A stretch of 64,000 bases of DNA from Candidatus Yanofskybacteria bacterium CG10_big_fil_rev_8_21_14_0_10_36_16 (GCA_002794035.1 PCXQ01000001.1:3256-67255), one strand, 5' to 3'; counted from the stretch's first letter, positions 3,323-64,000 are shown. Notes: a model not told the origin generated them from the letters alone. Numbers and translations: made by a program.

Positions 3323-3760
3323 TTATAAGTCTCTTACAATTACTGTACCCCTCTCTAATTCATTATAAAAATTGTGATAACTAAATATTCCTGATTTTGA
3401 AAATCTATAAATGTATGATTCTCCAACCTTGACATCATTTATGCTATCGAGGCCAGAGAGTACTTCCTCGCCGTTATCGCCAATGTCTGAAATAACTCGT
3501 AATGATGTTAGTCCATCGTTTTGAAATTTAACAGTATCGCCTACTCGTATTCTTAGGTTGGTTGGGCTAAAAACTCCTGCCTTATAAAAAACAGAATAAA
3601 TCCTCGGTTTCCTGTTGTTTATTAAAGAGCCATTCGCAGTAACGTTAGTTGTTTGAAGTTGTGAAGTGGTTTCTCCAAAGTGAATTAATGCCAAAATAAA
3701 AACTGCCAGCACTAGCATTATTTCAAACCACATTAATCCATTATTGGATCTTTGTTCCAT
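3323..3760 (-). CDS. Membrane-anchored cupredoxin-like domain protein (no obvious Cu ligands)
   Basis: N-terminal TM helix; beta-rich domain with RIRVGDTVKFQNDG. No Cys present. Confidence 0.3.
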   Translation of the reverse strand: MEQRSNNGLMWFEIMLVLAVFILALIHFGETTSQLQTTNVTANGSLINNRKPRIYSVFYKAGVFSPTNLRIRVGDTVKFQNDGLTSLRVISDIGDNGEEVLSGLDSINDVKVGESYIYRFSKSGIFSYHNFYNELERGTVIVRDL

Positions 3761-7380: not shown

Positions 7381-9423
7381 TTGTTTAAATTAAGCTCAAA
7401 ATTTAAGCCTACAGGCGACCAGCCCCAAGCAATAGATAGGCTGATACGAGGAATTAAAACAGGCGAAAAACACCAGACGCTTTTAGGCGTGACGGGTTCC
7501 GGCAAGACCTTTACTATTGCAAACGTAATCGCGAATGTTAAAAAGCCAACTCTTGTAATATCTCATAATAAGACCCTTGCAGCCCAGTTATATCAGGAGT
7601 TTAAAGAGTTTTTTCCGGAAAATGCCGTTCATTATTTTGTTAGTTACTATGATTATTATCAGCCAGAGGCCTATATTCCCCATTCAGACACGTATATTGA
7701 AAAAGATGCCAAAATAAACGAAGAAATAGACCGTCTTAGACATGCTTCAACCCAAGCTCTTATAAGTCGAGACGATGTTATTGTTGTGGCCTCGGTTTCT
7801 TGTATTTATAACCTTGGTTCTCCTGAAGATTATGATAATTTGTGTTTGGATGTTGTTGAGGGTCAAAAAGTAAGGCCGGGAGAAATTGCTGGGCATCTTG
7901 CCAGATTGCAATACGGATATGAACTTGAGCTTAAAAGAGGTACTTTCAGGAAATCAACAAAAGAAATAGAAGTAGCATCAGCTACCGGCGATAGGATTAC
8001 AAAAATAAAATTTAAGGGCAATGTTGTAGAAAAAATATCAGTTGCTGACAACGTTGAATTAGATGACATATTTTATAAAGATCCTAAGTTTGAGAAGGTT
8101 GTTGAAACAAAAATATTCCCTGCAAAGTATTGGATTGCCACAAATGACAAAACTGATTTGGCTATACAAAACATAAGGGCAGAACTGCAAAAACACATTA
8201 AAAAACTAGACAAGGAGGGGCTTTATGTAGAAGCAGAGCGTCTTAAATCAAGAACCGAATATGATATGGATATGATCAAAACCGCCGGTTATTGTCATGG
8301 AATTGAAAACTACTCAAGCCATCTTGATTTTAGAAAACCCGGAGAACCTCCATATACACTATTGAACTTTTTTTCCGCCAAAGGTGGATCCGCCTCCGGA
8401 GGAAAGACTAAGGGAGATTTTTTAACAATAATAGATGAATCTCACATGACTATTCCTCAAATAAGAGGTATGTATGGCGGGGATCATTCAAGGAAGACAA
8501 CATTGGTTAAGCATGGATTCCGCTTGCCTTCTGCCATTGATAATAGGCCTTTAAAGTTTGATGAGTTTGAAAAAAAAATTGATCAGAGAATATATGTATC
8601 TGCGACCCCTGGTCCCTATGAGCTTAAAAAAACAAAGAAAAGCAACGTTGTGGAGCAGTTTGTTAGACCCACAGGACTTCTTGATCCAGTTGTAGAAATT
8701 AAGCCAACAAAAAACCAGATCCCCCATTTAATATCTGAGATAAAGAAAAGAAACGATAATAACCAAAGAACTCTTGTCACAACCATTACAAAAAGGATGG
8801 CGGAAGACTTGTCAGAACATTTGGCGGACGAAGGCATAAAAGTAAATTATATTCATTCGGAGATCAAAACTTTAGATAGGCTTGAAATCATAAGGGATTT
8901 GCGTCTTGGCAGATACGATGTTGTTGTAGGGGTTAATTTGTTGAGAGAGGGTTTGGATTTGCCCGAGGTATCTCTTATCGCTATTCTTGATGCAGACAAA
9001 GAGGGCTTTTTAAGAAATGCGACAACCCTGGTTCAGACAATGGGCAGAGCAGCAAGGCATATTGAGGGAAGAATCATAATGTATGCTGACAAGATAACAA
9101 AATCTATGCAATTTGCTATTGATGAGACAGAAAGACGTAGAAAAATTCAAGAGACCCATAATAAAAAACACGGAATAACGCCAAAAACTATCATAAAGGA
9201 GATAGGTCAAAATTATTTGCCGGCAGGAAAAGGAAAAAAAGAAAAGATAAGCCGTTGGACTAGTTATGATCCTAAAGACGAAGAAGAACCAGAGAAAATG
9301 CTTCCTGAACAGCGTCTTGAATATCTTGAAAAAGAGATGAAGAATGCGGCTAAAAGACTACAATTTGAAAAGGCTATGATTATGCGTGAAGAGGTTTTAA
9401 GGTTAAGAAAAGAAGTTGGCTAG
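7381..9423 (+). CDS. uvrB: Excinuclease ABC subunit B
   Basis: TTG start right after an in-frame stop. FKLSSKFKPTGDQPQAI, GVTGSGKTF, full UvrB helicase motifs and the C-terminal UvrB/C interaction helix. Confidence 0.9.
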   Translation: MFKLSSKFKPTGDQPQAIDRLIRGIKTGEKHQTLLGVTGSGKTFTIANVIANVKKPTLVISHNKTLAAQLYQEFKEFFPENAVHYFVSYYDYYQPEAYIPHSDTYIEKDAKINEEIDRLRHASTQALISRDDVIVVASVSCIYNLGSPEDYDNLCLDVVEGQKVRPGEIAGHLARLQYGYELELKRGTFRKSTKEIEVASATGDRITKIKFKGNVVEKISVADNVELDDIFYKDPKFEKVVETKIFPAKYWIATNDKTDLAIQNIRAELQKHIKKLDKEGLYVEAERLKSRTEYDMDMIKTAGYCHGIENYSSHLDFRKPGEPPYTLLNFFSAKGGSASGGKTKGDFLTIIDESHMTIPQIRGMYGGDHSRKTTLVKHGFRLPSAIDNRPLKFDEFEKKIDQRIYVSATPGPYELKKTKKSNVVEQFVRPTGLLDPVVEIKPTKNQIPHLISEIKKRNDNNQRTLVTTITKRMAEDLSEHLADEGIKVNYIHSEIKTLDRLEIIRDLRLGRYDVVVGVNLLREGLDLPEVSLIAILDADKEGFLRNATTLVQTMGRAARHIEGRIIMYADKITKSMQFAIDETERRRKIQETHNKKHGITPKTIIKEIGQNYLPAGKGKKEKISRWTSYDPKDEEEPEKMLPEQRLEYLEKEMKNAAKRLQFEKAMIMREEVLRLRKEVG

Positions 9424-9444
9424 ATATAAACAATAAACAAAACA

Positions 9445-9480
9445 ATCCCCCGCAATTGCGGGGGGTTTGTGTTTTTTTTA
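9445..9480. terminator. Bidirectional intrinsic terminator
   Basis: CCCCCGCAATTGCGGGGGG hairpin followed by a T-run; between convergent uvrB and the dnaJ-cluster tail. Confidence 0.7.
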
Positions 9481-9720
9481 CTTTACTCTAATTAGAATAA
9501 TATCATCTGCTCTTTCAACTTCTCCAAGAATGGCGCTATTGCCTAGTTTTAATCTTAATCCTTCAACGGAATTTCCTCTGGATTCTTTGCAAGAAAAGCC
9601 ACAGCCTCTCTTTGTCTTTTTTTGGAGTACCCACATTTTAAGGTTTTCCTCGATTCCAACAGCAGCGTCTATTAAGTCGCCACAATGCCCTTGGTGTAAA
9701 ATTCCTGCATACATAAGCAC
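9478..9720 (-). CDS. Small Cys-containing protein (weak Nfu/NifU-like pattern)
   Basis: 80 aa; HCGD...GCGFSC spacing loosely resembles an Nfu C-terminal domain. An in-frame stop lies directly upstream. Confidence 0.25.
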   Translation of the reverse strand: MLMYAGILHQGHCGDLIDAAVGIEENLKMWVLQKKTKRGCGFSCKESRGNSVEGLRLKLGNSAILGEVERADDIILIRVK

Positions 9721-9797
9721 TCCTTATAAAAAATATTCGCGAAAGGTGCTTGTTGTATAATAATACAAAATTATGTTTTGGTCAATACTATTGTTGT

Positions 9798-10946
9798 TTA
9801 ATCTAATTCTTCCGCTAGTTCTTCCACCAATTTCTTTGCTTTTTTATTTAATTTATTGGGCATTTTTATATTTACTTTGACTATCTGGTCACCGGCTCTA
9901 TACCCTCCAAATCCTGATTGGCCATAAATTCCCAAACCTTTTAGGCGTATTTCTTGACCATCGTGGGTCCCAGGTTCTATTTTAATTTTTGATTTGCCAT
10001 CAATTGTAGGAACGGTAGTTTCTGTGCCAAGAAGAGCGTCCGTTAGTTTGAGTGGCATTTCGTATAGGATATCATTGCCTACGCGTTTAAAGTTTTCATC
10101 GGTGGTTGCATTAATGTGTAAATATAGATCTCCTGCTGAAGCACCTCTCAATCCTGCTTGGCCGGCACCTTTAACTGCCAATACTTCGCCGTTTTTGATA
10201 CCTGCAGGAATATTTATTTCCAAGACTTGTTTTTCTTTGTTTTTACCTGTGCCTTTGCAATGAGGACATTTTTCTTTTGGTATTTTGCCGCTACCCTGAC
10301 ATGCCTCGCATGCGGTGACTCTTATAAAGTTGCCAAAAAATGAGCCGGTAGATTCCTTTACTTGCCCTCTTCCTTTACATGTTGGACACTCATCCAAGGG
10401 CGTGCCTTTTTTGGCGCCCAACCCGTCACATTCTTTGCATGCTATATCTTTTTTTATTTCTATTTTTTTAAGTCCACCTCTTGCTATATCGTAAAAACTA
10501 ACCGATAGATTTACGTGAATATCTTCTCCTCGGCCTGCTTGTTGCCTGCTTCCTCTTTGACGAAATCCAAAAGCATCTCCGAACATGTCAAAGATATCAT
10601 CAAAATCAACATTTTGATATTGCCTGTCCTGAGACCCTCCGAAGGGTTGACCTCCCTGAGCGCCTCTGAAGAAATCGCTAAAATCGCCTTGTCTGAAGTC
10701 GAAACCGCCAAAACCTCCTCCACCCCCAGGTTGGCCTCCTTCGTTGAATGTAGAGCCAAATTTATCGTATTGGGAGCGTTTTTGAGGGTTAGACAAGACT
10801 TGATAGGCCTCATTTACCTCTTTGAACTTTTTTTCGTCTCCGCCCTTCTTGTCAGGATGATATTTGTGGGCCATTTTTCTGTATGCCTTCTTTATTTCAT
10901 CCTGAGAAGCGGACCTGTCTATGTCTAGTATTTTGTAGTAATCCAT
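9798..10946 (-). CDS. dnaJ: Chaperone DnaJ
   Basis: J domain HPD, G/F-rich region, four CxxCxGxG zinc-finger repeats. Confidence 0.9.
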
Positions 10947-11059
10947 GTTTTAAATTTCTAATTTCTCTCCCTACGGGAGATCTGCCGTAGGCATGATAAT
11001 TTTTAATTTCAAATACAATACGAAATTTTTAATTTTAAAATTTTGTTTTTTTATTATCT

Positions 11060-11182
11060 AAAAATCCAAAGTCCAAAACCCAAAGCCCAAACCAGTATTG
11101 AAATCCAAAACGTTATTATGCCTTTTGGATTTTGTTTATTTTTAGATTTGGTTGGGATTTTGGATTTTAGATTTTGGATTTT
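11060..11182. repeat. Imperfect long inverted repeat: (AAATCCAAA)n arm and (TTTGGATTT)n arm, upstream of dnaJ
   Basis: aaaatccaaagtccaaaacccaaagcccaaacc, about 50 nt spacer, then gatttggttgggattttggattttagattttggatttt. Confidence 0.6.
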
Positions 11183-11971
11183 CTAAAACTCTAACTGTTC
11201 TGCTTCAATTTGCACTATTTTGATTTTTGCTAGGCCGGTTCGTTTTGCCAGCCACACCCAAAACATGGTGATTGGTATTGTAAGCCACACGAATATAAAA
11301 CTCAATCCTTCAAGAACAAGAAATAAACCAAATGCTAAAATTGGAGGCATAAATTGGAAGTATGGCCCAACAAATTCTATGAACTGGTTTGTTACCTGCG
11401 TTATTAGTTGGTTTAGTGCCGATTCTCTTTCTTCTTCAGGCAACTCTCTTATTTCATCTCCCAAAAAAGTGCTTACAGTTCTTTCTATCACTTCATTTAC
11501 TGTGGGAGGAAGTTCTTTATTTGCTGCCTGGCTTTGTATTTTGGGGCTAAAGTAATATCCAAAAGATATCATAATAAAAAGAGGCATCATAACAATCGGC
11601 AACCCTCTTCTCATGATAAGGTGGGTATTTACTACATTTCTTTGTTCTTCCTCGTCTTTGATGATTTTGCCCGCATATAAATGGACCAAAAGGGATAACC
11701 CAACACCTATAAAGAAAAAGTAATTAAAGCCGAAAACTAAGAAAAATGGCAATACAACTGCAAGGGATATCCCTAGTCTTTCAAGGGACTTTCTCATTAA
11801 AAGAAAAGACATAGCTACTAGAGACGACAATACGAGGAGTCCCACTAGAGGTTGAATCCAAGCTTCAGCAACAGCAAAAAGAGATGAACCATAAAGCCAG
11901 GGTTTTGTAACAGCCCAAAACCAAGTAGATAGCGCAAGAATTATTATAAGTGTAATTGGTTTTTTATACAT
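11183..11971 (-). CDS. Polytopic membrane protein of unknown function, between dnaK and dnaJ
   Basis: 262 aa; about 6 TM segments and an acidic loop. Confidence 0.45.
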   Translation of the reverse strand: MYKKPITLIIILALSTWFWAVTKPWLYGSSLFAVAEAWIQPLVGLLVLSSLVAMSFLLMRKSLERLGISLAVVLPFFLVFGFNYFFFIGVGLSLLVHLYAGKIIKDEEEQRNVVNTHLIMRRGLPIVMMPLFIMISFGYYFSPKIQSQAANKELPPTVNEVIERTVSTFLGDEIRELPEEERESALNQLITQVTNQFIEFVGPYFQFMPPILAFGLFLVLEGLSFIFVWLTIPITMFWVWLAKRTGLAKIKIVQIEAEQLEF

Positions 11972-12111
11972 GCTTATATTTTAACACAATTTAATTTTTG
12001 CAGCTTCAACAATTACAACATTTTTATCAGCATCAGCGCCTTTATCGGTGAGTATGGTTTATAACATCCCAGCCCCGCCGAAGCAGAGCTGGGATGTTAG
12101 GGTTTTTTGTT

Positions 12112-14052
12112 TTATTCATTTTCTTGCCCTGGGTTTGTTTGTGGTGAGGAATCAGAATCTGTCGAAGGGTTTTCTTCTTTTGATGTTTTGGTTTCCTTAT
12201 TGCCTTCTGCCTCGCCATTTTTGGGCTCGGCATCTCCGGCACTTCCAGCACCTCCGGCATACATTGCTTGGCCTACTTTTTGAACTGATTGTGATAATTC
12301 TTCTGTAGTTTTTTTGATTTCATCTGTGTTATCGCTGTCCTTTGCTTTCTTTAGGGCCTCAATTTTTTCTTCAATTTCTTTTTTGTCTTCTTCTTTTAAT
12401 TTGTCGCCTGCGTCTTTAAGGGCTTTTTCAGACGAGTAAATCAAAGTTTCGGCCATATTTTTTGTTTCAACTGCTTCTTTTTTCTTTTTATCTTCCTCTG
12501 CGTGTTTTGCTGCTTCTTCTGTCATTCTTTTCTTTTCTTCATCAGTTAAACCTGATGAACCTTCAATCTTTATTGATTGTTCTTTGCCTGTGGCTTTGTC
12601 CTTTGCTTTTACGTTTAGTATTCCGTTGGCATCAATATCAAAGGATACTTCAATTTGAGGAACGCCACGAGGTGCTGGAGGAATACCGTCAAGAATAAAC
12701 CTACCTAAGGTTTTGTTATCAGCAGACATTGGTCGTTCACCTTGCAAGACGTGTATTTCAACAGACGGCTGATTGTCAGCGGCAGTTGAATAGGTTTGTG
12801 TTTTTGAAGTCGGCACAGTGGTGTTTTTCTCTATCATTCTTGTCATCACACCGCCCAATGTTTCAATACCAAGTGATAAAGGCGTAACATCAAGCAAAAG
12901 TACGTCTTTGACATCACCTTGCATAATTCCTCCTTGAATAGCTGCTCCCATTGCCACAACTTCATCAGGATTAATATCTTTGTGGGGCTCTTTGCCAAAA
13001 AGTTCTCTTACAGCACTAACTATTGCAGGCATTCTGGTTTGTCCCCCAACAAGTATCACTTCGTTAATATCTGATGGTTTAAATCCAGCGTCTTCAATTA
13101 CTTTATTGGTAATATCAATTGATTTTTTAATATGCCCCTCAACTAATGATTCAAGCTTTGCTCTTGTGAAATTAATGTTAAAATGCTTGGGTCCTGATGA
13201 ATCAGCAGTCAAGAAAGGTATATTGACGTCGCTTTGGTTTGTGGTTGATAGTTCGTGCTTGGCTTTTTCTGCAGCATCTTTTAAGCGCTGTAGAGCCATT
13301 TGGTCTTTTGAGACATCGATTCCTTGGTCTTTTTTAAATTCTTCAGCAAAATAATCAATTATGTGCTGATCAAAGTCATCTCCCCCAAGGTGAGTATCGC
13401 CTCCTGTTGATTTTACTTCTATTGTGTCTTCAGATACTTCAAGCACGGAAACGTCGAAAGTTCCTCCACCAAAGTCGTAAACAACTATTTTTTCATCTTT
13501 TTTCTTGTTAAAACCGTAAGCTAAAGCAGCGGCTGTTGGCTCGTTGATTACCCTTTTTACTTTAAGGCCTGCAATTTCGCCCGCATCTTTTGTGGCTTTT
13601 CTTTGAGAGTCGTCAAAGTATGCCGGTACAGTAATAATGGCTTCTTCTATTTTTTCACCTAGTTTGTCTTCGGCATCTGCTTTTAATTTTTGCAAAATCA
13701 TAGCTGATATTTCAGCAGGCTTGTAGTTTTTGTCAGCCATTTTTATTTCTACTGCACCATGAGAACCCTCATGGATGTCATAAGGTAATGTTTTCTTGTC
13801 ATGTTGGACTTCGGGGTCTGAAAATCTGCGTCCAATAAGGCGCTTGGCAGAAAATATAGTGTTAGTAGGATTTGTTACCGCCTGTCTTTTTGCTGTAATT
13901 CCTGCATAACGATCTCCGTTCTTACCTATGGCTACTATTGAAGGCGTTGTTCTCATGCCTTCCTTGTTTTCTAAAATTCTTGGCTGGCCTGCGTCTACTA
14001 TAGCCATGGCGCTGTTTGTTGTTCCTAGGTCTATTCCTAATATCTTGGGCAT
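12112..14052 (-). CDS. dnaK: Chaperone DnaK (Hsp70)
   Basis: [28 protein letters not shown]; C-terminus extended with a low-complexity tail. Confidence 0.95.
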
Positions 14053-14256
14053 ATGTTTTAAAAACTTCTTTATGTGGCGGACTAAATCCTTGTCCGCGAC
14101 GCAATTTCAGAAAGTTTTTTTGTTTAGTTTTTTGTTTAAGAAAGAGTCCCCTGCGGACGATGCTATACCATCCGCAGAAACTCTTTCCTTTGTTGACAAA
14201 TAATAGTTTTGGGGGTATTCTATAGTTAGTTATCCAAACAGAAGGAGTGTGCACCT

Positions 14257-14436
14257 ATGGGTTTAATGATCAATTCAGTGCTGGGTTCTTTTATTGCCGG
14301 CTATGCTTTTCATGGCTTGTTGGAAGCTATTTCTAGCACTGCCACTGCTTGGTATTCTATTGGTTTAATAATTGGTTTGTTTTATATGGTCATTAACATT
14401 TACTTATTTCATTGTCAGCAATTAAGTTTGGATTAA
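14257..14436 (+). CDS. Small hydrophobic protein (59 aa) with its own promoter and terminator
   Basis: TTGACA-17-TATTCT at 14193-14221; RBS AAGGAG at 14243; ATG at 14257; hairpin with T-run at about 14445-14478. Below the ORF-track length cut-off. Confidence 0.3.
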   Translation: MGLMINSVLGSFIAGYAFHGLLEAISSTATAWYSIGLIIGLFYMVINIYLFHCQQLSLD

Positions 14437-14534
14437 CTATTTAATGGCTCGGTCCGGCAATATAGCTGGCCCGGGTTTTTTTATTTACAGATTTTTTCCT
14501 TGTTATTGGTTACTAATTTTTAAAACCAAAGATT

Positions 14535-14963
14535 TTATTTAACTTCTACGTCTATTTTTTTAGGTTCCTTAACCTCTGCCTTTGGAACCACAATTTTTAA
14601 TACTCCATCTTCGTGAGTTGCCTTAACCTCGGTTTCCTTTATTCCTGCAGGTAGAGAAATTGCTCTTGAGAAGTGGCCTCTCCTAATCTCTTTTCGGTAA
14701 TAATTTTTGCCCTCTTTTTCCTCTTCTTGTTCTGATCCGCCTTCAATTCTCAATACCCCATCTTCTACAGAAATGTTTACTTTGTCTGCTTCTGATTTTG
14801 GGATTTGTAGTTCTACAACAATATTGTTGTCTTTTTCATAGACATCTATTGCCGGCGCCCAATGTCTTTTTACTGCCGGCCAGAAGTTGAGGGGCGTAAC
14901 ATCATCCCAGTCGTCAAACAATCTTTCCATTTCTTTGAAGGGATCATATTTTATGATGGACAT
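14535..14963 (-). CDS. Hsp20/alpha-crystallin small heat-shock protein
   Basis: Alpha-crystallin domain; PAIDVYE...GVL.I..P. Confidence 0.85.
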   Translation of the reverse strand: MSIIKYDPFKEMERLFDDWDDVTPLNFWPAVKRHWAPAIDVYEKDNNIVVELQIPKSEADKVNISVEDGVLRIEGGSEQEEEKEGKNYYRKEIRRGHFSRAISLPAGIKETEVKATHEDGVLKIVVPKAEVKEPKKIDVEVK

Positions 14964-15048
14964 AAATTATATACTCATCACATGTCTTCGATACCAACCA
15001 CGCTCAAGGTGTTTGATAGAAGCCAGATGATAAGTGTTATGTTTTAAG

Positions 15049-15175
15049 GTCAAAACTCAAAATTCAAAATCTCAACTAAACCCAAATATTTAAAATTCAA
15101 ATACAGGAAAGCTTAACTTTAGTTTTGGATTTAAATATTGGTTTGGATTTTGGGCTTTGGATTTAGGATTTTTTA
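15049..15175. repeat. Imperfect long inverted repeat (CAAA-rich arm / TTTG-rich arm) upstream of hsp20
   Basis: Same motif family as 11060-11182: caaaactcaaaattcaaaatc ... ggtttggattttgggctttggatttagg. Confidence 0.6.
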
Positions 15176-15209
15176 AAGATAATTTAATTAAGATAACTTT
15201 TTTTCTAAT

Positions 15210-15686
15210 CTACTTGCTTATTCTTACTTTTGCTGCCCTTATTATTTTTCCTCCTATTTCATATCCCGGCTGAACTTCTTCAACGACTGTGCCAGATTTT
15301 CCTCCTTCAGATTCGCCTATCGACTCATGTCTTAAGGGATCAAAATCTTCACCAATTGTTTCAATCTTTGTGACGCCATTTTTACTTAGAAAACTTATAA
15401 ATTTGCTTTTTATGTTTTCAAGACCTGTTACCCATTCACTGTTTTCATCCCGCACTTTCTCAGGCAAATGACTAAGGGCAATATCAAATTCATCTATAAA
15501 TGATACAAGCTGGATGACCAAGTCTTCGTTTGCAAACTTTATAGCTGATTCAATTCTGCTGGACTCTTCTTTTTTGTAATTTAAAAGGTCAGCTTGGGCT
15601 CTTTTCCAACCGCCAAGATATTCCCCAGCTTGTTTTTCGCATTCCTCAAGTTTTTTTTGGTTTTTTTGAATTTCCTTTTCAGACAT
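15210..15686 (-). CDS. grpE: Nucleotide exchange factor GrpE
   Basis: Coiled-coil N-terminus, RAQADLLNYKK, C-terminal beta domain. Confidence 0.9.
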   Translation of the reverse strand: MSEKEIQKNQKKLEECEKQAGEYLGGWKRAQADLLNYKKEESSRIESAIKFANEDLVIQLVSFIDEFDIALSHLPEKVRDENSEWVTGLENIKSKFISFLSKNGVTKIETIGEDFDPLRHESIGESEGGKSGTVVEEVQPGYEIGGKIIRAAKVRISK

Positions 15687-15692
15687 AATTTT

Positions 15693-16487
15693 TTATTCCA
15701 ACAGTAATGGTCTATTAGCTGTTAGGTTTAAATATTTTGTTGCAAATTTTACAAGGCCTAAGTTTCTTTCATAATCCATTCTCATAGGTCCTACTAGAGT
15801 TAGTGATCCTATATAGTTTTGTGGCAAGAGATATCTGCTAATAATCACTGTTTCCCCGGACATTTCCTCTAGAGGGTTTTCTTTTCCTATTAGAATTTTT
15901 ATATCTTTTCCAATATCCCCTGTCCCTACGCGTATGGTCGGTATTATGTTTTCTGAACCAAATATTTCTCCGGCCATTTTTTCAAAAATTTCGTCAAATT
16001 CATCAAAAAAACTTGTAATATTAAATATCCTGTCTATTTCTCTAAATTCGGGTAATGACATTAGTGCTGAAATTCCCGTTTTGTGAAATTCATTTTTTCC
16101 GATAATGCCAGTCATTATCATGTTGCCCGAAAGTCCCGAGAGAACTTTAGCTAACGCCTTATTTATATCGGATGGGTTGTTGAAATTTTTTTCTAGCTCT
16201 TCCTGAATTAATTCAGCTTCATTAATATCTATGCGTGGTGTGTTCTGTATTATATTATCTACAAAATATCTGAAGGCTTTGTGAGTGGGCACTCTGCCTG
16301 AAGATGTGTGGGGGTGTGTTAGATACCCAAGATCTTCAAGGTCATGCATATCTGCCCTAATAGTTGCGGAACTTACGCCAAGATTACCTCTGTTTTCAAG
16401 AAGCTTAGAACCTACAGGTTCAGCTGTTTGGGTGTATTCACGTATAATTGTTGACAATATTGCCTCTTGGCGTCCTGTTAAATCCAT
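15693..16487 (-). CDS. hrcA: Heat-inducible transcription repressor HrcA
   Basis: LTGRQEAIL...VGSKLL winged-helix N-terminus; overall HrcA architecture. Confidence 0.9.
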   Translation of the reverse strand: MDLTGRQEAILSTIIREYTQTAEPVGSKLLENRGNLGVSSATIRADMHDLEDLGYLTHPHTSSGRVPTHKAFRYFVDNIIQNTPRIDINEAELIQEELEKNFNNPSDINKALAKVLSGLSGNMIMTGIIGKNEFHKTGISALMSLPEFREIDRIFNITSFFDEFDEIFEKMAGEIFGSENIIPTIRVGTGDIGKDIKILIGKENPLEEMSGETVIISRYLLPQNYIGSLTLVGPMRMDYERNLGLVKFATKYLNLTANRPLLLE

Positions 16488-16689
16488 AAAAACAAATCAT
16501 CGCTTTCGCAGGAAGTCCCCTACACAAATGGGCTTATCCTGCTCAAGTCTAAGAAGGTTAGCTCAATTTCTTTGTTAGTCACTCCGGTACTCCCTCAACG
16601 TATTATATATATGCTTCGGTTCGTTCCTCGTGCCCGCCTCGAACTTGAGCAAACGATGATTTTTTTGTTATATTCCTATTATATTACTG

Positions 16690-16716
16690 TTAGCACTCTC
16701 AAGTCAAGAGTGCTAA
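16690..16716. promoter_or_regulatory. CIRCE operator (HrcA binding site)
   Basis: Perfect TTAGCACTC-N9-GAGTGCTAA, about 200 bp upstream of hrcA. Confidence 0.9.
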
Positions 16717-16794
16717 TTTCATTATATACAGACGTTAAAATAATGCAAGGGGTTTCATATAAATAAAAACCCCGCTGTTGCGAGGTTGCGTTGT

Positions 16795-17139
16795 TTAATA
16801 ACGGCCTATTGAGAATTCTTCTATATATTTCATTAAATAATCCGATGCTGTAATTTGTTTTGATCGAAGTTCTGGGCAAAATTCTTTTACTCTCCTATCT
16901 ATGTGTTCACATGTTGGTATTAATTTTTTAAGTTCTTCCTGAACTGAATAATTTTCATCGTCAGTACAAACATCGTCTATTCTTTCTTTCAAGTCAAAAT
17001 ATTCGAATACAACTTGCAGTTTTCTTTCCAAAACCCGAACTTCATTATACAAAAAGAATATTGCTAATATTCCGATTGCTATGATGATTCCGAGGCTCAT
17101 GATCACCTCCTTGTAGGTGTGCTTGTTTAAAATTAACAA
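16795..17139 (-). CDS. Hypothetical small membrane protein
   Basis: 114 aa; one N-terminal TM helix. Confidence 0.3.
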   Translation of the reverse strand: MLILNKHTYKEVIMSLGIIIAIGILAIFFLYNEVRVLERKLQVVFEYFDLKERIDDVCTDDENYSVQEELKKLIPTCEHIDRRVKEFCPELRSKQITASDYLMKYIEEFSIGRY

Positions 17140-17169
17140 AACGTTAATTAACTTGCAATAAAAAAGGGC

Positions 17170-17454
17170 TTATTGCCCTTTTGGATATACTTCTACAGGG
17201 TACCAATTCTTCCCTATAACAGGATGACATACCTTACAATCACAGCATTGATATAGATCCCTGGATAACTGATAGAATTGAATTGAACCACAGATACAGC
17301 CAAGCTTGTGTTCTTTAGGATGTCCTAATTCAGATTTCCATACCACATATACTTTTAAGGGCGAGGATACTTCGGTGTGGAAGCCTTTTACCATTTCTGG
17401 ATCGTCTAGTATGCGTTGCCATCCTTCATCTGGTTGTATTAGTGCAAAATTCAT
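17170..17454 (-). CDS. Hypothetical Cys-rich small protein
   Basis: 94 aa; CICG...CCDCKVCH cluster. Confidence 0.3.
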   Translation of the reverse strand: MNFALIQPDEGWQRILDDPEMVKGFHTEVSSPLKVYVVWKSELGHPKEHKLGCICGSIQFYQLSRDLYQCCDCKVCHPVIGKNWYPVEVYPKGQ

Positions 17455-26232: not shown

Positions 26233-26392
26233 CTTTTTATAGCTTATCATAGGGTGCTTAAAATAAATTCAGACAGAAATTAGAGAGCATATGTAGCGGG
26301 GTTAGCCATCGGTGATGGTAATTTGTTTAACCCAAATGGTAGAGCGACAAGATTGAGAATAATTTTAGTAATTTTTCGTATTTTTTAACAAT

Positions 26393-26424
26393 AAAACAGC
26401 CCCGCCACGGCGGGGCTGTTTTAT
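26393..26424. terminator. Bidirectional intrinsic terminator
   Basis: ACAGCCCCGCC-acg-GCGGGGCTGT followed by TTTTATT. Confidence 0.7.
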
Positions 26425-26438
26425 TGTTAAAAAAGTTT

Positions 26439-28874
26439 TTATTGAATAGAGTAAATATATTTTAGTACAGCATTAGCTACTCTTTCTAGACTTTGGGCAC
26501 TACATTTATCAAGCGTATCGCCTGTGGTATGAAATGGCGGATAGTTAAAATCAATTACTAAAAAGCTTGGTATGCCAGCATTGTTAAGCGGTGTGTGGTC
26601 GTCTCTTATTGTTTGTTCCACTTTATCACCAAAAGATTCATTACTTATGTTTTTCGCTATATTCCAAAAGAATTCTACTTGTTTTGGAGCGTTTTTAACT
26701 GATGATTCTTCTTTATATATTTTTAAGTTTTTATCGCATACCATATCAAGAACAAGTGCAGATGTTGGTTTGTTGTTTTTGTATGTACCATTTAAGTGTT
26801 CCGAAAAATATGTAGAGCCAAGGGGTACCCAGTTTCTGTAATTGCCGTTTTGTTTTATGTCCCCTTCCTCCCCATCAAAGAAAACTATATCAATACCAAT
26901 ACTCGGTATTTTGTTGTTATTGTTTAATATCCTTGCAATCTCTACAAGAACGGATACTCCTGAGGCTGAATCATTAGCTCCCGGTACCGGCTTGTCTTTA
27001 TGCATTAAGTCTAAATCGGCAAACTCTTTGCTGTCATAATGTGTTGCCAAGATAAGGCGTTTTTCTTTGTTTGGATAAAAACGGCCGATAATATTCATTA
27101 ATCCATAATTGTTTTTATCCTTATCTTCGTGGTTCCACGATTGTATTATTGTTTCGTGGGCCAGTTCTTTTATTTCAGCATTTAAAAAATCCTGGGTTTT
27201 TTTGTGGCCGGTAGATCCTATATAACGTGGCGCATAGCTTAGTTGTTGTTCTATTGTGGCCAGCATTTCGTCGCCATCGACTAGTTCGGGTTCATTAAAT
27301 GTTCGCTGTATGATGTCTGCTGTCATATAATCAACCGGGGCATAATTATCTGTAAGTATTGGATATAAATCTAAATTATATCTATCAAGGTTAATTAATT
27401 TATCCCCCATCGAACTGATTATGGGGTTTTTGTTTTGTAAAATTTGATTGGCACTTAGATCAATTTGCTTATCGCTGTTATGTCCTACAAAAATAATATT
27501 TTGTGAACCTGTTTTATTTGGGTTTTCGGTTGCAAAAAAGTAGCTGTTAGGAAAAACGCTTCTGAATGTTCTTATTTCCGAAAAAATAAGAGAAGGTTTT
27601 TGTCTTGATAAATTGCCAATCAAATTAGCTATAAATACGCCATTATCAGATAGTTTTTCTTTTGCTGTAATAAAAAATTCCTGCGTGGTGAAGTGAGCAG
27701 GAATGGAAAAAAGTGAATAATACACGTCGCTGAATATCAAGTCATATTTTTTATTAGAATCTCGCAGTAATCGCCGGCCATCCTCGGTGTAGTTATGAAA
27801 ATTGAGATTGTCTTTAAGATCGAAATATTGTTTAGCAAGATTGAAAAGCGATGGTTCTATTTCAGAAATATCAATTGTTGCATTTGGTAATTCTGCAGAA
27901 AGTGCTTTTGGTATAGAATATGCACCGCCTCCTATGACTAAGGCATTTTTGACTTCAGGATTGAATATTTTGTACAGAGAGTAGTATCTGGTGTAGTTAT
28001 ATACCAAATCAGTGGGGTCATTTGAATCAAGAAACATTGCCCCCGATAAACTTTTGTCCTGCTTGAAAACTCTTATTGGTCTTCCTCCGCTTAAGGTGTC
28101 AAAAATGGTTATATTTTCATATATGCCATCTTTGCTGTATAAAACATCTGCTTTAGTTTGGTTAATGATAAAAATGGTGGCCCCGGTTAAAGATATAACT
28201 GCAACAATAGATTTTATTATCCACTTTTTATTAATTCCTAAAAAAACAAGTGGTATAAAACCTAATAAAAATAGAGCTATTCCTGTGCCAATGAAAATAT
28301 AATCAATACCAAAATTTGGTATAAGAACAAATCCTGCAAGCAAGCTTCCCAGAATACTACCAAGTGTAGACCAAAAAAACACTTTGCCTGATATGCTGCC
28401 GATACCCTGTTCGGGCACTTGGACGCTTTGTAATTTTATTGCGTAAGGCGATAGCGTGCCCAACAGAAGAGCTGGTATAAGAAAAAGCAACAAAGAGGAA
28501 ATCAGAGGCCCAGTTATAAGAGAAAAATTGACGCTTAAAATCGGTAAAATTATAGCACCTATAAAATGTATAGTAATAACTAGCAAGCCACTGACAAGAA
28601 TTATTCCAAAAAACCACCTTAATACAGGATATTTGTCGGCAAATTTACCGCCTATGTAATATCCAATGCTTAAAGCTGCCAATATAACGCTTATAACACT
28701 TGATACGGTAAAAATAGTATTGCCATAATGAGGAGACAAAACACGTACAGCAACAACCTCAATGATTAATACGCAAGCTCCTGTAATAAAAACAGAAAGT
28801 GGGAGTAAATTTTGTTTTAGGAATTTATTCATGTATCTTGTTGTAATTGTAACAGGTTGCAAATATTTGCTCAA
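26439..28874 (-). CDS. Fusion protein: polytopic membrane domain + spermidine-synthase-like domain + C-terminal M28 zinc peptidase
   Basis: About 8 N-terminal TM helices. PABS-like fold (VIGGGAYSIP...DLIFSDV). M28 motifs (HYDS, ANDSASGV, FFDGEEGD, HTTGD). Confidence 0.55.
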   Translation of the reverse strand: MSKYLQPVTITTRYMNKFLKQNLLPLSVFITGACVLIIEVVAVRVLSPHYGNTIFTVSSVISVILAALSIGYYIGGKFADKYPVLRWFFGIILVSGLLVITIHFIGAIILPILSVNFSLITGPLISSLLLFLIPALLLGTLSPYAIKLQSVQVPEQGIGSISGKVFFWSTLGSILGSLLAGFVLIPNFGIDYIFIGTGIALFLLGFIPLVFLGINKKWIIKSIVAVISLTGATIFIINQTKADVLYSKDGIYENITIFDTLSGGRPIRVFKQDKSLSGAMFLDSNDPTDLVYNYTRYYSLYKIFNPEVKNALVIGGGAYSIPKALSAELPNATIDISEIEPSLFNLAKQYFDLKDNLNFHNYTEDGRRLLRDSNKKYDLIFSDVYYSLFSIPAHFTTQEFFITAKEKLSDNGVFIANLIGNLSRQKPSLIFSEIRTFRSVFPNSYFFATENPNKTGSQNIIFVGHNSDKQIDLSANQILQNKNPIISSMGDKLINLDRYNLDLYPILTDNYAPVDYMTADIIQRTFNEPELVDGDEMLATIEQQLSYAPRYIGSTGHKKTQDFLNAEIKELAHETIIQSWNHEDKDKNNYGLMNIIGRFYPNKEKRLILATHYDSKEFADLDLMHKDKPVPGANDSASGVSVLVEIARILNNNNKIPSIGIDIVFFDGEEGDIKQNGNYRNWVPLGSTYFSEHLNGTYKNNKPTSALVLDMVCDKNLKIYKEESSVKNAPKQVEFFWNIAKNISNESFGDKVEQTIRDDHTPLNNAGIPSFLVIDFNYPPFHTTGDTLDKCSAQSLERVANAVLKYIYSIQ

Positions 28875-49702: not shown

Positions 49703-50783
49703 TGCCCTGACTAAAAAACAAGTAGATATTTCTAATTATGCTTTTACAACGATCGACCCAAATGTCGGGGTTGTTGGGGTACCTGATGAAAGATTAGATA
49801 AATTGGCCAAGATGTCTAATTCCGAGAAAATTACCCCTACGGCCATTGAATTTATTGATATCGCAGGTCTTATTAAGGGCGCAGCAGAAGGAGAAGGGTT
49901 GGGTAATAAGTTTTTAGCTAATATTCGTGAAGTAGATGCCATTGCTCACGTAGTAAGGGTTTTTCCCGCCGGAGGCGGGTCCGCTCATGGCGGAGAAATA
50001 CAGCATGTGCACAAAAATATTGATCCGGTAAATGATATTGAAATAATCAATCTGGAATTAATAATGGCTGATTTGCAGACTATTGAAAGAAGATTAAGGG
50101 AGACAAAAGGCAATGACCCTGCCAAGACTTTTGAAAAAGAGGTGTTAAACAAACTTAAAGAAAATTTAGAAAAAGAAATTCTTGCAATAAACATTTTATT
50201 TACTGAAAAAGAACAAGAAATTGTTCGTGGGTTACATCTTTTAACCAACAAAAAAGTTATATATGCCTTTAATGTGGCAGAACAACAGTTGAAAGACAAT
50301 TGGCAGCCTAACAAAGAATTGCTTGATGTTATAAAAAACAATGAATTTGTTGTTGTCTCAAATACGTTTGAACAATTGCTATCTGAATCAGACCCTGAAG
50401 AAAAAAAGGTTTATCTTGAAGAACTAGGTTTAAAATATAGCGGTTTAGATCAGCTTATAAAAAAAGGATACAAGGCTCTTGGTTTAATTACATTTTTGAC
50501 AACTGGTCCTAAAGAAACACGTGCTTGGACAGCTCATGAGGGTGATTCTATCCCCCGTGCGTCATCTGCTATCCATACTGATTTTGAAGAAAAATTTATT
50601 AAAGCCGATGTGATAAATTGGCAAACACTTTTAGATGTAGCGGTCCATTCGGCGGATTCGGGTTCCTCATCACAAGCAGGCTCAGGCCAAGCTTGGTCTA
50701 AAGCAAAAGAGCTTGGCAAGATGAGAACAGTTGGTAAAGATTACATAATTCAAGAAGGTGATGTAGTCGAGATTAAAATTTGA
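49635..50783 (+). CDS. ychF: Ribosome-binding ATPase YchF
   Basis: GIVGLPNVGKSTLFNALT G1 motif; TGS-like C-terminus with a short insertion. Confidence 0.85.
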   Translation: MSHTKLAIGIVGLPNVGKSTLFNALTKKQVDISNYAFTTIDPNVGVVGVPDERLDKLAKMSNSEKITPTAIEFIDIAGLIKGAAEGEGLGNKFLANIREVDAIAHVVRVFPAGGGSAHGGEIQHVHKNIDPVNDIEIINLELIMADLQTIERRLRETKGNDPAKTFEKEVLNKLKENLEKEILAINILFTEKEQEIVRGLHLLTNKKVIYAFNVAEQQLKDNWQPNKELLDVIKNNEFVVVSNTFEQLLSESDPEEKKVYLEELGLKYSGLDQLIKKGYKALGLITFLTTGPKETRAWTAHEGDSIPRASSAIHTDFEEKFIKADVINWQTLLDVAVHSADSGSSSQAGSGQAWSKAKELGKMRTVGKDYIIQEGDVVEIKI

Positions 50784-50914
50784 TCTTGACTACATCACTG
50801 TAAGAAGGCCGAACATTTTCTTGGTTTTTTGTAGAAAATGTGAAGGTGTCGAAATAATTCAATTATTTCGACAGATGTTGTTGAAATTAAAATATAGAAT
50901 AAACAGTAGTTTTT

Positions 50915-54382: not shown

Positions 54383-54464
54383 TAAGTAGCATGTAGCAAG
54401 TATTATGCAAAAAAATCTAGATTTTAATCTAGATTTTTTATTCTTGCTACTGACTACTGGCTAC

Positions 54465-60699: not shown

Positions 60700-60779
60700 T
60701 TCACACCTCTTGTTGATTTTAAAAAAGCTGGAATTATATTGCCATAAATAATAATAAATTTAAAGTAATTCAAATTAAT

Positions 60780-60835
60780 CCCCACACTCATGCATGAGTG
60801 TGGGGATTAAAAACCCCGCCTAGGCGGGGTTTTTA
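60780..60835. terminator. Tandem hairpins: 26-nt perfect palindrome plus family terminator
   Basis: CCCCACACTCATGCATGAGTGTGGGG, then AAAAACCCCGCC-ta-GGCGGGGTTTTT (identical to 60181-60208). Confidence 0.7.
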
Positions 60836-60853
60836 ATGATTTTATTTTAAGGA

Positions 60854-63598: not shown

Positions 63599-64000
63599 TT
63601 ATCCTTTATGATGAGGAGCATTTATCATTCCGCACTTTTTCCATTTATATAGTTGTCCTGTATTAGGATTGGTTGCTCCGCATGGACAGGGATCGTTTCG
63701 GCCTACCTTTTGAGTATTTTTGATCGGTTTAGAATTGTTTTGGTTTTGGTTGTTTGGATTTTGAGTTTGGGGTTTTGGATTTTCAAAAATGTTTGCTCTC
63801 CCTTCCTTTGTCTCTTGTCTCTGGGGTTTTTTTAATATTGTTACCTTAAATATTGTATTTGCGACTTGAGTACTTATTGTTTGTTGTAATTCTTTAAACA
63901 ATCTTTGCCCTTCAACTTTATACTCAACCAGAGGATCTTTTTGGCCATAAGCACGAAGGCGAACAGAATCACGAAGCTGTTCCATTGTTTCAATGTGATC
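63599..64000 (-). CDS. secA: Preprotein translocase SecA, C-terminal part (N-terminus off window)
   Basis: LRAYGQKDPLVEYK wing/helical region and C-terminal zinc finger DPCPCGA...KKCG. The frame continues to the window edge. Confidence 0.8.
   Translation of the reverse strand, partial: DHIETMEQLRDSVRLRAYGQKDPLVEYKVEGQRLFKELQQTISTQVANTIFKVTILKKPQRQETKEGRANIFENPKPQTQNPNNQNQNNSKPIKNTQKVGRNDPCPCGATNPNTGQLYKWKKCGMINAPHHKG

Follow-up and report, generated by a model that had tools for sequence, protein, structure and literature searches.

Organization of the heat-shock cluster

The window, by which we mean the whole 64-kb stretch of DNA that was analysed, comes from a Candidatus Yanofskybacteria MAG and carries a heat-shock cluster on its minus strand. 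The order CIRCE, hrcA, grpE, hsp20, dnaK, membrane-protein gene, dnaJ had been proposed by a first-pass annotation, and Pfam places HrcA, GrpE, HSP20, HSP70 and DnaJ exactly there. The features are listed below; where no strand is given, none was assigned.

16690..16716, CIRCE operator upstream of hrcA, a perfect consensus match (TTAGCACTC-N9-GAGTGCTAA)
16488..16677, minus strand, hrcA leader of ~190 nt, closed by long-range pairing of 16646-16666 with 16490-16510
15693..16487, minus strand, hrcA, 264 aa (PF01628, E 1.9e-18)
15210..15686, minus strand, grpE, 158 aa (PF01025)
15049..15178, palindrome 1 in the grpE/hsp20 spacer, an A/C-rich arm followed by a T/G-rich arm, a decayed copy
14973..15035, minus strand, hsp20 leader hairpin that stops ~10 nt short of the ATG, representing in the window a predicted structure conserved across relatives
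14535..14963, minus strand, hsp20, 142 aa (PF00011)
14257..14436, plus strand, orphan hydrophobic ORF of 59 aa with an AAGGAG SD, convergent with hsp20 and divergent from dnaK
14151..14177, palindrome B, CTGCGGA-N13-TCCGCAG, with TGgTATAGC, an extended -10-like box, in its loop
14074..14100, palindrome A, GTCGCGGAC-N9-GTCCGCCAC, the leader hairpin of dnaK, with its end 21 nt upstream of the ATG
12112..14052, minus strand, dnaK, 646 aa (PF00012)
11183..11971, minus strand, membrane-protein gene, 262 aa, no Pfam match
11053..11185, palindrome 2, (AAAATCC)4-5 facing (GGATTTT)4, beginning at the membrane-protein stop codon
10970..10991, minus strand, leader hairpin of dnaJ, CCTACGG-N8-CCGTAGG, with its end 23 nt upstream of the ATG
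9798..10946, minus strand, dnaJ, 382 aa (PF00226, PF00684, PF01556)
9478..9720, minus strand, ORF of 80 aa, no Pfam match, likely start ATG at 9714 behind AAGGAG
9444..9467, GC-rich, bidirectional terminator-like hairpin that closes the cluster against uvrB

Among Patescibacteria, hrcA-grpE-hsp20-dnaK-(x)-dnaJ is a common gene order, with a spacer between grpE and hsp20 that usually measures 57-95 nt. The membrane protein has a counterpart between dnaK and dnaJ in the relative L238 (30% identity, E 6e-33), whose membrane gene overlaps dnaJ by ATGA. The 59-aa ORF between hsp20 and dnaK, which the first-pass annotation does not contain, matched only itself in a search of 5.8 billion proteins, and a promoter-like TTGACA-17-TATTCT lies by it at 14193-14221. 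Because this plus-strand ORF sits between hsp20 and dnaK, the cluster is not a single uninterrupted operon.

The CIRCE operator and the hrcA leader

A single CIRCE had been claimed for the cluster, and indeed there is one perfect site before hrcA and no second one in the window at up to 3 mismatches. The hrcA promoter reads TTGACT-18-TATAAT, with 11 of 12 consensus matches, its -35 at 16707-16702 and its TATAAT at 16683-16678. The -35 lies inside the CIRCE spacer, such that the operator overlaps what is, by consensus match, a vegetative-type promoter; 27 of 29 relatives likewise have a CIRCE with TTGAC in its spacer before hrcA. The leader that follows is predicted to fold with -52.6 kcal/mol (z -3.1). 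Similar sequence was found in none of the other loci compared, and hrcA leaders appear short in L238 and L240. Neither the HspR-HAIR box (CTTGAGT-N7-ACTCAAG) nor the CtsR box (GGTCAAANANGGTCAAA) gave more than chance-level matches, and none of these lies in the cluster.

With the HrcA-CIRCE regulon of the Bacillus-type dnaK operon, the window shares the perfect CIRCE over a sigma-70-like promoter before hrcA-grpE, and it retains the order hrcA-grpE-dnaK-dnaJ. It differs in that hsp20 and the membrane-protein gene have been added, in that a convergent ORF parts dnaK from the CIRCE promoter, and in that hrcA carries a structured leader of 190 nt.

Two long palindromes built from heptamers

Two long imperfect inverted repeats made of AAATCCAAA units had been noted upstream of hsp20 and dnaJ, and both are found at these places, each ~130 nt long and lying 86 nt (palindrome 1, on the hsp20 side) and 107 nt (palindrome 2, on the dnaJ side) from the start codons. 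AAATCCAAA occurs 14 times where 3.4 occurrences are expected (0 of 100 shuffles reach 14), and 8 of the 14 are inside the two palindromes. According to TRF, both dnaJ-side arms and one hsp20-side arm have a period of 7, the arrays being GGATTTT x4.0 (11155-11182), AAAACCC x4.4 (11061-11091) and a period-7 array at 15050-15075. The two palindromes are paralogous, with 52 nt in common at 86.5% identity in inverted orientation. Palindrome 2 has the more stable predicted fold (-44.6 kcal/mol, z -7.0, as against -23 kcal/mol, z -2.5, for palindrome 1). Fold energies of sense and antisense strands show no consistent bias. The repeat unit also recurs inside secA, as claimed, where its translation is ...ENPKPQTQNPNNQNQNN..., part of the C-terminal linker of SecA.

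Neither the rest of the 64-kb window nor the 12.6 kb examined outside it yielded a third copy. In 76.6 kb the two copies thus both lie within the heat-shock cluster, the other ~69 kb examined being without one. By eye, neither copy is flanked by a direct repeat that would indicate a target-site duplication, and no mobility protein was seen, which leaves the analogy to MITEs a loose one.

All relatives' loci were fetched around hsp20 or hrcA, and the sample is therefore biased toward heat-shock genes. In the nearest relative, L241 (Hsp20 61% identical), a palindrome occupies the same grpE/hsp20 junction and has AAATCCTAAATCC in common with the window. L010 and L013 have similar elements at grpE/hsp20, and L239, L244 and L246 carry a homologous GAAATCC-type element at hsp20/dnaK. 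Two further elements of L239 lie at rpmJ/rpsM and rpsM/hrcA, one of them thus between ribosomal-protein genes. The syntenic loci of L238 and L240 lack the long palindrome, and their grpE/hsp20 spacers are tight. In this biased sample, most of the similar elements found in relatives lie inside or beside the heat-shock cluster, and the loci compared show that presence and position of these elements vary among relatives. Palindromes have nonetheless been kept at one junction between diverged species (the window and L241; L239, L244 and L246), and pairing is retained among diverged copies with a few compensatory or wobble (G-U) changes. Persistence at a junction together with retained pairing suggests that such sequences are under selection for structure rather than being junk.

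Beyond these relatives, the matches listed for the pattern AAATCCWAARYCYAAARYCCAAA comprise over 120 unrelated loci in metagenomes, with GC contents of 30-71%, and tblastn found heat-shock genes beside none of these. On viral contigs, (AAAATCC)3 was found at 32 loci and the control tracts (AAAACTC)3 and (AAATACC)3 at 44 and 8, respectively; a control heptamer is equally as common as AAAATCC tracts. Outside this clade, the comparison shows no link of heptamer palindromes to stress genes. The first-pass annotation had held that repeats scattered randomly through the genome would speak against a role at stress genes. By that measure the outcome is mixed: in this genome the two copies in 76.6 kb both stand at stress genes, and across genomes such a link is not seen.

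Short hairpins before hsp20, dnaK and dnaJ

What is conserved besides CIRCE is a set of short hairpins with GC clamps, ending 10-23 nt ahead of the hsp20, dnaK and dnaJ start codons. The hsp20 hairpin had escaped the first-pass annotation. Between positions -70 and -5 of hsp20 the median fold z is -3.4, with 18 of 26 loci below -2, whereas 97 control junctions have a median of -0.39 and 23% below -2 (Mann-Whitney p=3e-5). In most relatives the hairpin ends 8-16 nt before the ATG, and its predicted structural conservation across relatives is statistically well supported. At -14 to +3, hsp20 does not exceed other genes in pairing probability, and folding in silico at 20, 37 and 50 C gave only generic loosening. 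A thermometer role of this hairpin is thus not supported by the folding models.

For dnaJ, the reported CCTACGG/CCGTAGG stem is real, though displaced by ~2 nt from the coordinates first given for it. Its proposed overlap with the ribosome-binding site does not hold, because a hairpin that ends 23 nt before the ATG leaves a normally spaced site free.

Upstream of dnaK, the two palindromes with a GCGGA core are present as described, at 14074-14100 and 14151-14177, and they are the sole instances of GCGGA-N5-25-TCCGC in the 64-kb window, where 0.21 are expected and at least 2 turn up in 3 of 100 shuffles. The terminator scan called palindrome B, with a weak tail. A possible counterpart of palindrome B, CTGCAGGCGA..TCGTCTGCAG, lies 11 nt after hsp20 in L241; L238, L240 and L243 have unrelated GC-rich hairpins 17-28 nt before dnaK.

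Known RNA thermometers, such as ROSE, the Synechocystis hsp17 leader and the fourU elements (PMC3074152, PMC4152365, PMC3669281), likewise are hairpins in leaders of small heat-shock genes, and the ribosome-binding region of hsp20 borders directly on its conserved hairpin. However, the window has no Rfam match to them, its long palindromes lie far from the start codon, its stems are much more stable, and pairing at the hsp20 start is unexceptional. The Rfam scan covered 9300-17400 at E values up to 5 and returned no thermometer family even among weak matches.

What the long palindromes may be

We lean, with little more than even confidence, toward regarding the long palindromes as lineage-variable intergenic elements made of heptameric simple-sequence repeats, with (AAAATCC)n in the 5' arm and (GGATTTT)n in the 3' arm, similar to REP or MITE sequences, and not as heat-shock sensors or operators. 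The position of both copies, among 76.6 kb, inside the heat-shock cluster runs counter to this.

REP/BIME, ERIC and Correia/NEMIS sequences are imperfect palindromes, ~35-150 nt long, that sit between genes of one transcript. As RNA they form hairpins and affect mRNA stability, processing (by RNase III for Correia) or termination, and their presence at a given junction differs among relatives. The window differs in having two copies only, with arms of low-complexity tandem repeats and no unique consensus, and neither a target-site duplication nor an associated transposase was found. Over-represented intergenic heptameric repeats have been published, inverted arrangements included, with GGGAATC in Xanthomonas, GGGGA(T/C)T in Nostoc, TAACTGA in Beggiatoaceae and cyanobacteria, and the STRR heptamers of Calothrix as examples; stem-loop-capable inversions have been described and polymerase slippage has been proposed as their origin (PMC4692102, PMC4679880). 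As there, the window has tandem 7-nt intergenic units whose length and sequence vary between related genomes at the same junction. Its arrays, however, are short (4-5 units), AT-rich instead of G-rich, confined to two sites in 76.6 kb, and always paired into a palindrome of ~130 nt, with the A/C arm first and the T/G arm second.

Of the original proposal, the part that stands is that hairpin-forming elements exist beside CIRCE. The idea that the AAATCCAAA repeats are thermometer-like stems or operators of a second regulator does not stand: with distances of 86 and 107 nt to the starts, they do not pair with the start-codon region; Rfam gives no thermometer match; syntenic L238 and L240 do without them; a similar element in L239 lies between ribosomal-protein genes; and over 120 unrelated contigs among the matches listed have heptamer tracts, with heat-shock genes in none. 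A related possibility, which we consider unlikely, is that the AU-rich palindromes are heat-labile hairpins between cistrons: their melting, or their cleavage by RNase III, would change with temperature and so tune the output of hsp20, dnaK and dnaJ independently of HrcA. It would account for the position of both copies inside the cluster and for similar elements at grpE/hsp20 (L241, L010, L013) and hsp20/dnaK (L239, L244, L246), AU-rich stems are inherently temperature-sensitive, and some compensatory and G-U changes preserve pairing. In L239, L244 and L246, moreover, the 3' arm reaches to within 4-6 nt of the dnaK ATG and so covers the ribosome-binding region. This has to be set against the 86-107 nt that separate the window's palindromes from start codons, their absence from L238 and L240, the L239 element between ribosomal-protein genes, the lack of strand bias in fold stability, a locus sample centred on heat-shock genes, and energies of -23 to -90 kcal/mol, far more stable than known thermometers.

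The palindromes might also be terminators or insulators that split the cluster into hrcA-grpE, hsp20, dnaK, membrane protein and dnaJ, with promoters just downstream, which seems rather unlikely to us. Each begins at or shortly after the upstream stop codon and ends in GGATTTTT, hairpin terminators are used at other junctions of this genome, and promoter-like sequences can be seen by eye (TTGACC-15-TATCAT at 15053-15027; TATCAT at 10998-10993). Yet these sequences fit the promoter consensus poorly, their spacers being 14-15 nt, and the terminator scan called neither palindrome, the AU-rich stems having no GC-rich base or clean U-tract and being very unlike the perfect GC-cored hairpins that are the clear terminators of this genome; in relatives without the element the genes stay tightly coupled. 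The GCGGA palindromes could still be operators of a non-HrcA repressor, since site B encloses the extended -10-like TGgTATAGC and would occlude it, as CIRCE encloses the hrcA -35. Their uniqueness in 64 kb fits this, as does the convergent gene, which cuts dnaK off from the CIRCE promoter such that dnaK needs its own control. We nevertheless hold it to be improbable: the half-sites are unequally spaced (11 and 13 nt), no regulator gene is nearby, HAIR (HspR) and CtsR boxes are both absent, distant relatives have unrelated GC hairpins at that place, and the candidate counterpart in L241 differs by a compensatory G-C to A-T swap, which favours a hairpin over a sequence-specific operator.

If the long palindromes are REP/MITE-like elements, as we prefer, they would have arisen by polymerase slippage plus inverted duplication and would behave as REP/MITE-type sequences do. 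Lying between co-oriented genes, they are probably transcribed and would fold into long AU-rich RNA hairpins. Their effect would then be generic, as an intercistronic processing site (e.g., for RNase III), an element that governs stability, or a barrier at which transcription partly terminates, and hsp20 and dnaJ would thereby be uncoupled from the upstream cistrons. A role of the long palindromes that is specific to heat shock is not supported. Heat-shock control of the cluster rests on a classical HrcA-CIRCE operator at the hrcA promoter, and for the extra hairpin-forming elements a role at the RNA level appears, from their predicted folds, most plausible.

The chaperone cluster and its HrcA switch

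The window has a GC content of 36%, and its chaperone cluster is composed as follows (chaperone genes assigned with Pfam):

16487-15693, minus strand: hrcA
15686-15210, minus strand: grpE
14963-14535, minus strand: hsp20
14257-14436, plus strand: 59-aa hydrophobic ORF with an AAGGAG SD and a promoter-like TTGACA-17-TATTCT, between hsp20 and dnaK
14052-12112, minus strand: dnaK
11971-11183, minus strand: 262-aa membrane protein, no Pfam family
10946-9798, minus strand: dnaJ
9720-9478, minus strand: 80-aa ORF, no family

Pfam bears out the minus-strand order of chaperone genes reported in the first-pass annotation, which overlooked the plus-strand 59-aa ORF. Because this ORF sits between hsp20 and dnaK, a convergent gene separates dnaK from the genes preceding it. 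In a search of 5.8 billion proteins, its sole match was itself. Gene order in this cluster, hrcA-grpE-hsp20-dnaK-(x)-dnaJ, is common among Patescibacteria, where the grpE|hsp20 spacer mostly measures 57-95 nt, and the cluster is a conserved HrcA-CIRCE chaperone operon of this group. The membrane protein is kept between dnaK and dnaJ in the related locus L238 (L238:10433-11173; 30% identity, E 6e-33), where its stop overlaps the dnaJ start (ATGA); this suggests that the protein belongs to the chaperone operon in this clade specifically.

A CIRCE had been noted at hrcA only, and indeed the perfect element TTAGCACTCTTGACTTGAGAGTGCTAA at 16690-16716 is the single site in the window even when 3 mismatches are allowed. 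A -35 element (TTGACT) lies within its spacer, with TATAAT 18 nt further on, and 27 of 29 relatives (reference genomes) likewise have a CIRCE ahead of hrcA whose spacer contains TTGAC. CIRCE and promoter at hrcA are an intact, classical HrcA switch. Searches for HAIR (HspR) and CtsR boxes gave chance-level matches only, and no such boxes are present. Between the CIRCE promoter and hrcA lies a structured leader of about 190 nt (16488-16677, minus strand; -52.6 kcal/mol, z -3.1); the long-range pairing that closes it spans 21 nt and stops 3 nt short of the ATG. Similar sequence was sought elsewhere and none was found; the hrcA leaders of L238 and L240, another related locus, appear short. Scanned at the Rfam gathering thresholds, the whole window yielded one tRNA and a LOOT RNA (RF03000; 43811-43936, minus strand; full-length match, 86.2 bits, gathering score 46.4) only.

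A structured leader before hsp20

The most interesting result is a hairpin just before hsp20, which was missing from the extra elements listed in the first-pass annotation:

15035-14973, minus strand: hsp20 leader hairpin, window copy, by folding; weaker outer pairs reach the ATG

A stable hairpin of this kind is seen upstream of hsp20 in the loci L005-L014, L020, L238-L241 and L246. Its sequence is not conserved, and in most relatives measured it ends about 8-16 nt before the start codon. Over hsp20 positions -70 to -5 the shuffle z-score has a median of -3.4 and lies below -2 in 18 of 26 loci; the same measure gives -0.09 for grpE, -0.94 for dnaJ, -1.5 for dnaK and -1.7 for hrcA, while 97 control co-oriented junctions from the same loci have a median z of -0.39, with 23% below -2 (Mann-Whitney against hsp20, p=3e-5). 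Compensatory changes are visible by eye in the inner stem in L007 and L012, and in L239 and L246 the grpE stop codon lies within the 5' arm. A structurally conserved hsp20 leader hairpin, variable in sequence and kept in structure across many Patescibacteria, is thus statistically supported.

Since small heat-shock genes often carry RNA thermometers (PMC3074152, PMC4152365, PMC3669281), such a role is attractive for this hairpin. Folding in silico at two temperatures had been proposed as a check for thermometers; at 20, 37 and 50 C, the predicted pairing of positions -14 to +3 was no higher for hsp20 than for other genes, and a thermometer at hsp20 is therefore not supported in silico. Alternatively, the predicted structure may stabilise the mRNA, mark a processing site or act as a coupling hairpin.

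Hairpins upstream of dnaK and dnaJ

Three shorter elements precede the other two chaperone genes:

14100-14074: site A, GCGGA...TCCGC palindrome, ends 21 nt before the dnaK ATG
14177-14151: site B, GCGGA...TCCGC palindrome, encloses TGgTATAGC
10991-10970: dnaJ leader hairpin, ends 23 nt before the ATG

The two palindromes claimed upstream of dnaK are present, and the 64 kb contain no other GCGGA...TCCGC site (0.21 expected; two reached in 3 of 100 shuffles). That they form a sequence-specific operator is very unlikely, because the half-site spacing differs between A and B and because compensatory changes point to hairpins, which we favour. Site B is similar to a hairpin that L241, the window's nearest relative, has 11 nt past hsp20 (CTGCAGGCGA..TCGTCTGCAG), with a compensatory change between them; site A parallels unrelated GC-rich hairpins 17-28 nt before dnaK in L238, L240 and L243, and by eye a compensatory change, G-C to A-T, distinguishes the hairpin of L238 from that of L240. 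The dnaJ hairpin also exists, but the overlap with the ribosome-binding region once ascribed to it does not hold, since an end 23 nt before the ATG leaves it clear of a normal ribosome-binding site.

Anatomy of the long palindromes

The long inverted repeats described before hsp20 and dnaJ are likewise confirmed:

15049-15178: hsp20-side palindrome, between grpE and hsp20
11053-11185: dnaJ-side palindrome

They hold 8 of the 14 occurrences of AAATCCAAA, for which 3.4 would be expected. Tandem Repeats Finder reports a period of 7 (GGATTTT x4.0, AAAACCC x4.4, TCAAAAC x3.6), so each element is an A/C-rich heptamer array opposite its own complement. The dnaJ-side palindrome folds at -44.6 kcal/mol (z -7.0), and the hsp20-side one is a decayed copy (-23 kcal/mol, z -2.5). 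The two are paralogous over 52 nt in inverted orientation (86.5% identity), the match extending past the heptamers into ...ACCAGTATTGAAATCCAAAAC. Near-identical sequence occurs in 4 other samples, with 2-3 differences per contig, all outside the hairpins. As had been stated, the repeat unit also has a coding counterpart in secA: at 63708-63795 (minus strand), in the C-terminal linker of SecA, units of the A/C heptamer type, repeated with a period of 21 nt, code for the low-complexity tract ENPKPQTQNPNNQNQNN directly before the zinc-binding tail.

In a sliding-fold survey, many other intergenic hairpins of the genome turned out to be perfect GC-cored terminators, different in kind from the long palindromes. 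Clear terminators lie at 26380-26440, 60776-60840, 50760-50800 and 54410-54440; they are long, perfect and GC-cored with A/T extensions, and some form tandem pairs. TIGR arrays were set aside by judgement: the palindromes consist of two heptamer arms rather than spacer-containing arrays, and the ten cluster ORFs yielded chaperone Pfam families only. A literature search by sequence string returned unrelated primers only.

Heptamer repeats beyond the clade

According to the literature, the intergenic DNA of bacteria is enriched in heptameric repeats, which differ from one close relative to another and may form inverted pairs (PMC4692102, PMC4679880). Among the matches listed for the degenerate pattern AAATCCWAARYCYAAARYCCAAA in metagenomes, there are at least 120 loci, of 30-71% GC. 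In viral contigs (AAAATCC)3 was found at 32 loci, against 44 for the composition-matched control (AAAACTC)3 and 8 for (AAATACC)3; hence the AAAATCC heptamer is not special. Of the listed pattern matches with an inverted partner, 32 have the T/G arm first and 3 the A/C arm, and the control heptamer AAAACTC has the same bias (17 to 0); the window's palindromes are of the rarer, A/C-first type. High-GC (57-62%) metagenome contigs carry multi-copy (GGATTTT)n-spacer-(AAAATCC)n elements, often ending a few bases from a start codon:

L156:2470-2660 and L156:12170-12340
L045:3500-3850
L075:240-380
L068, L087, L133 and L052

Are the long palindromes heat-shock regulators?

The first-pass annotation took the repeats for possible thermometer-like stems or operators for a non-HrcA regulator. 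This is supported only in part: for the long repeats, neither a thermometer role nor a second regulator is borne out. A dedicated RNA-level role in the chaperone operon has some points in its favour. Both copies found in 76.6 kb (the window and 12.6 kb past its ends) lie in the heat-shock cluster. Among closer relatives, retrieved through Hsp20, L241 (Hsp20 61% identical) carries a palindrome like the window's between grpE and hsp20, with AAATCCTAAATCC common to both. Analogous low-complexity palindromes occupy this junction in L010 and L013. Moreover, a homologous palindrome of the GAAATCC type lies at hsp20|dnaK in L239, L244 and L246 (column identity 73%; -48 to -79 kcal/mol); its 3' arm stops 4-6 nt short of the dnaK ATG, and its pairing is retained by a few compensatory and wobble substitutions. 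Across these three elements, the only alignable orthologues, 4 of 46 predicted pairs have double changes, too small a number to decide the matter. However, the window's palindromes stop 86 and 107 nt short of the start codons, clear of ribosome-binding regions, and the Rfam scan of the cluster returned no thermometer or leader family, weak matches to E=5 included. L238 and L240 (Hsp20 54-55% identical to the window's) are syntenic for Nramp, hrcA, grpE and hsp20, L238 also for dnaK, the membrane protein and dnaJ, yet both lack the long palindrome, and in L238 the membrane-gene stop overlaps the dnaJ start (ATGA). L239 carries two further similar elements at rpmJ|rpsM and rpsM|hrcA, the metagenome matches listed contain no heat-shock genes by tblastn, neither the sense nor the antisense strand folds consistently more stably among ten elements compared, and the sampling of relatives is biased, every locus having been fetched around a heat-shock gene.

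On this balance, a dedicated RNA-level role is a minority possibility, and we lean towards a known, generic class of heptameric-repeat or REP-like palindromes; most likely the long palindromes are generic and repeat-derived. Whatever effect they may have would come about indirectly, by way of processing, stability or partial termination in the stretches between cistrons. It is quite unlikely that the long AU-rich heptamer hairpins are RNA elements under selection in the HrcA-controlled operon of Yanofskybacteria-like Patescibacteria and, with the conserved hairpin abutting the hsp20 ribosome-binding site, form a second, post-transcriptional heat-shock layer; such a layer would act by temperature-dependent processing, termination or translation, unlike any described thermometer.

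Palindromic insertions seem to be frequent in the grpE|hsp20 spacer, as at a hot spot. In L018 (9166-10054) it contains an insertion with a candidate GIY-YIG-type ORF (by eye) flanked by 'gatccttcgctccggagtaccggaactcaggatgac' repeats, and in L021-L023 GC-rich 'gtcatcctgagcgaagg...' hairpins. In the rpsM|hrcA spacer of L239, a CTAATTA-type heptamer run (3410-3470; ctaattactaattactaattactatttactaattacc) lies directly upstream of an A/C-first palindrome; therefore different heptamer arrays coexist in one spacer. A composition-based hairpin detector run over 495 kb of relatives was noisy, its weak matches being terminators or coding sequence.

To our knowledge, there has been hardly any work on how the Candidate Phyla Radiation regulates its heat-shock response, and we know of no way as yet to grow the Patescibacteria concerned alone. 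The generic reading of the eye-catching long repeats would save effort on a false lead, and the hsp20 leader hairpin gives post-transcriptional control of a small heat-shock protein a concrete candidate that can be put to the test.
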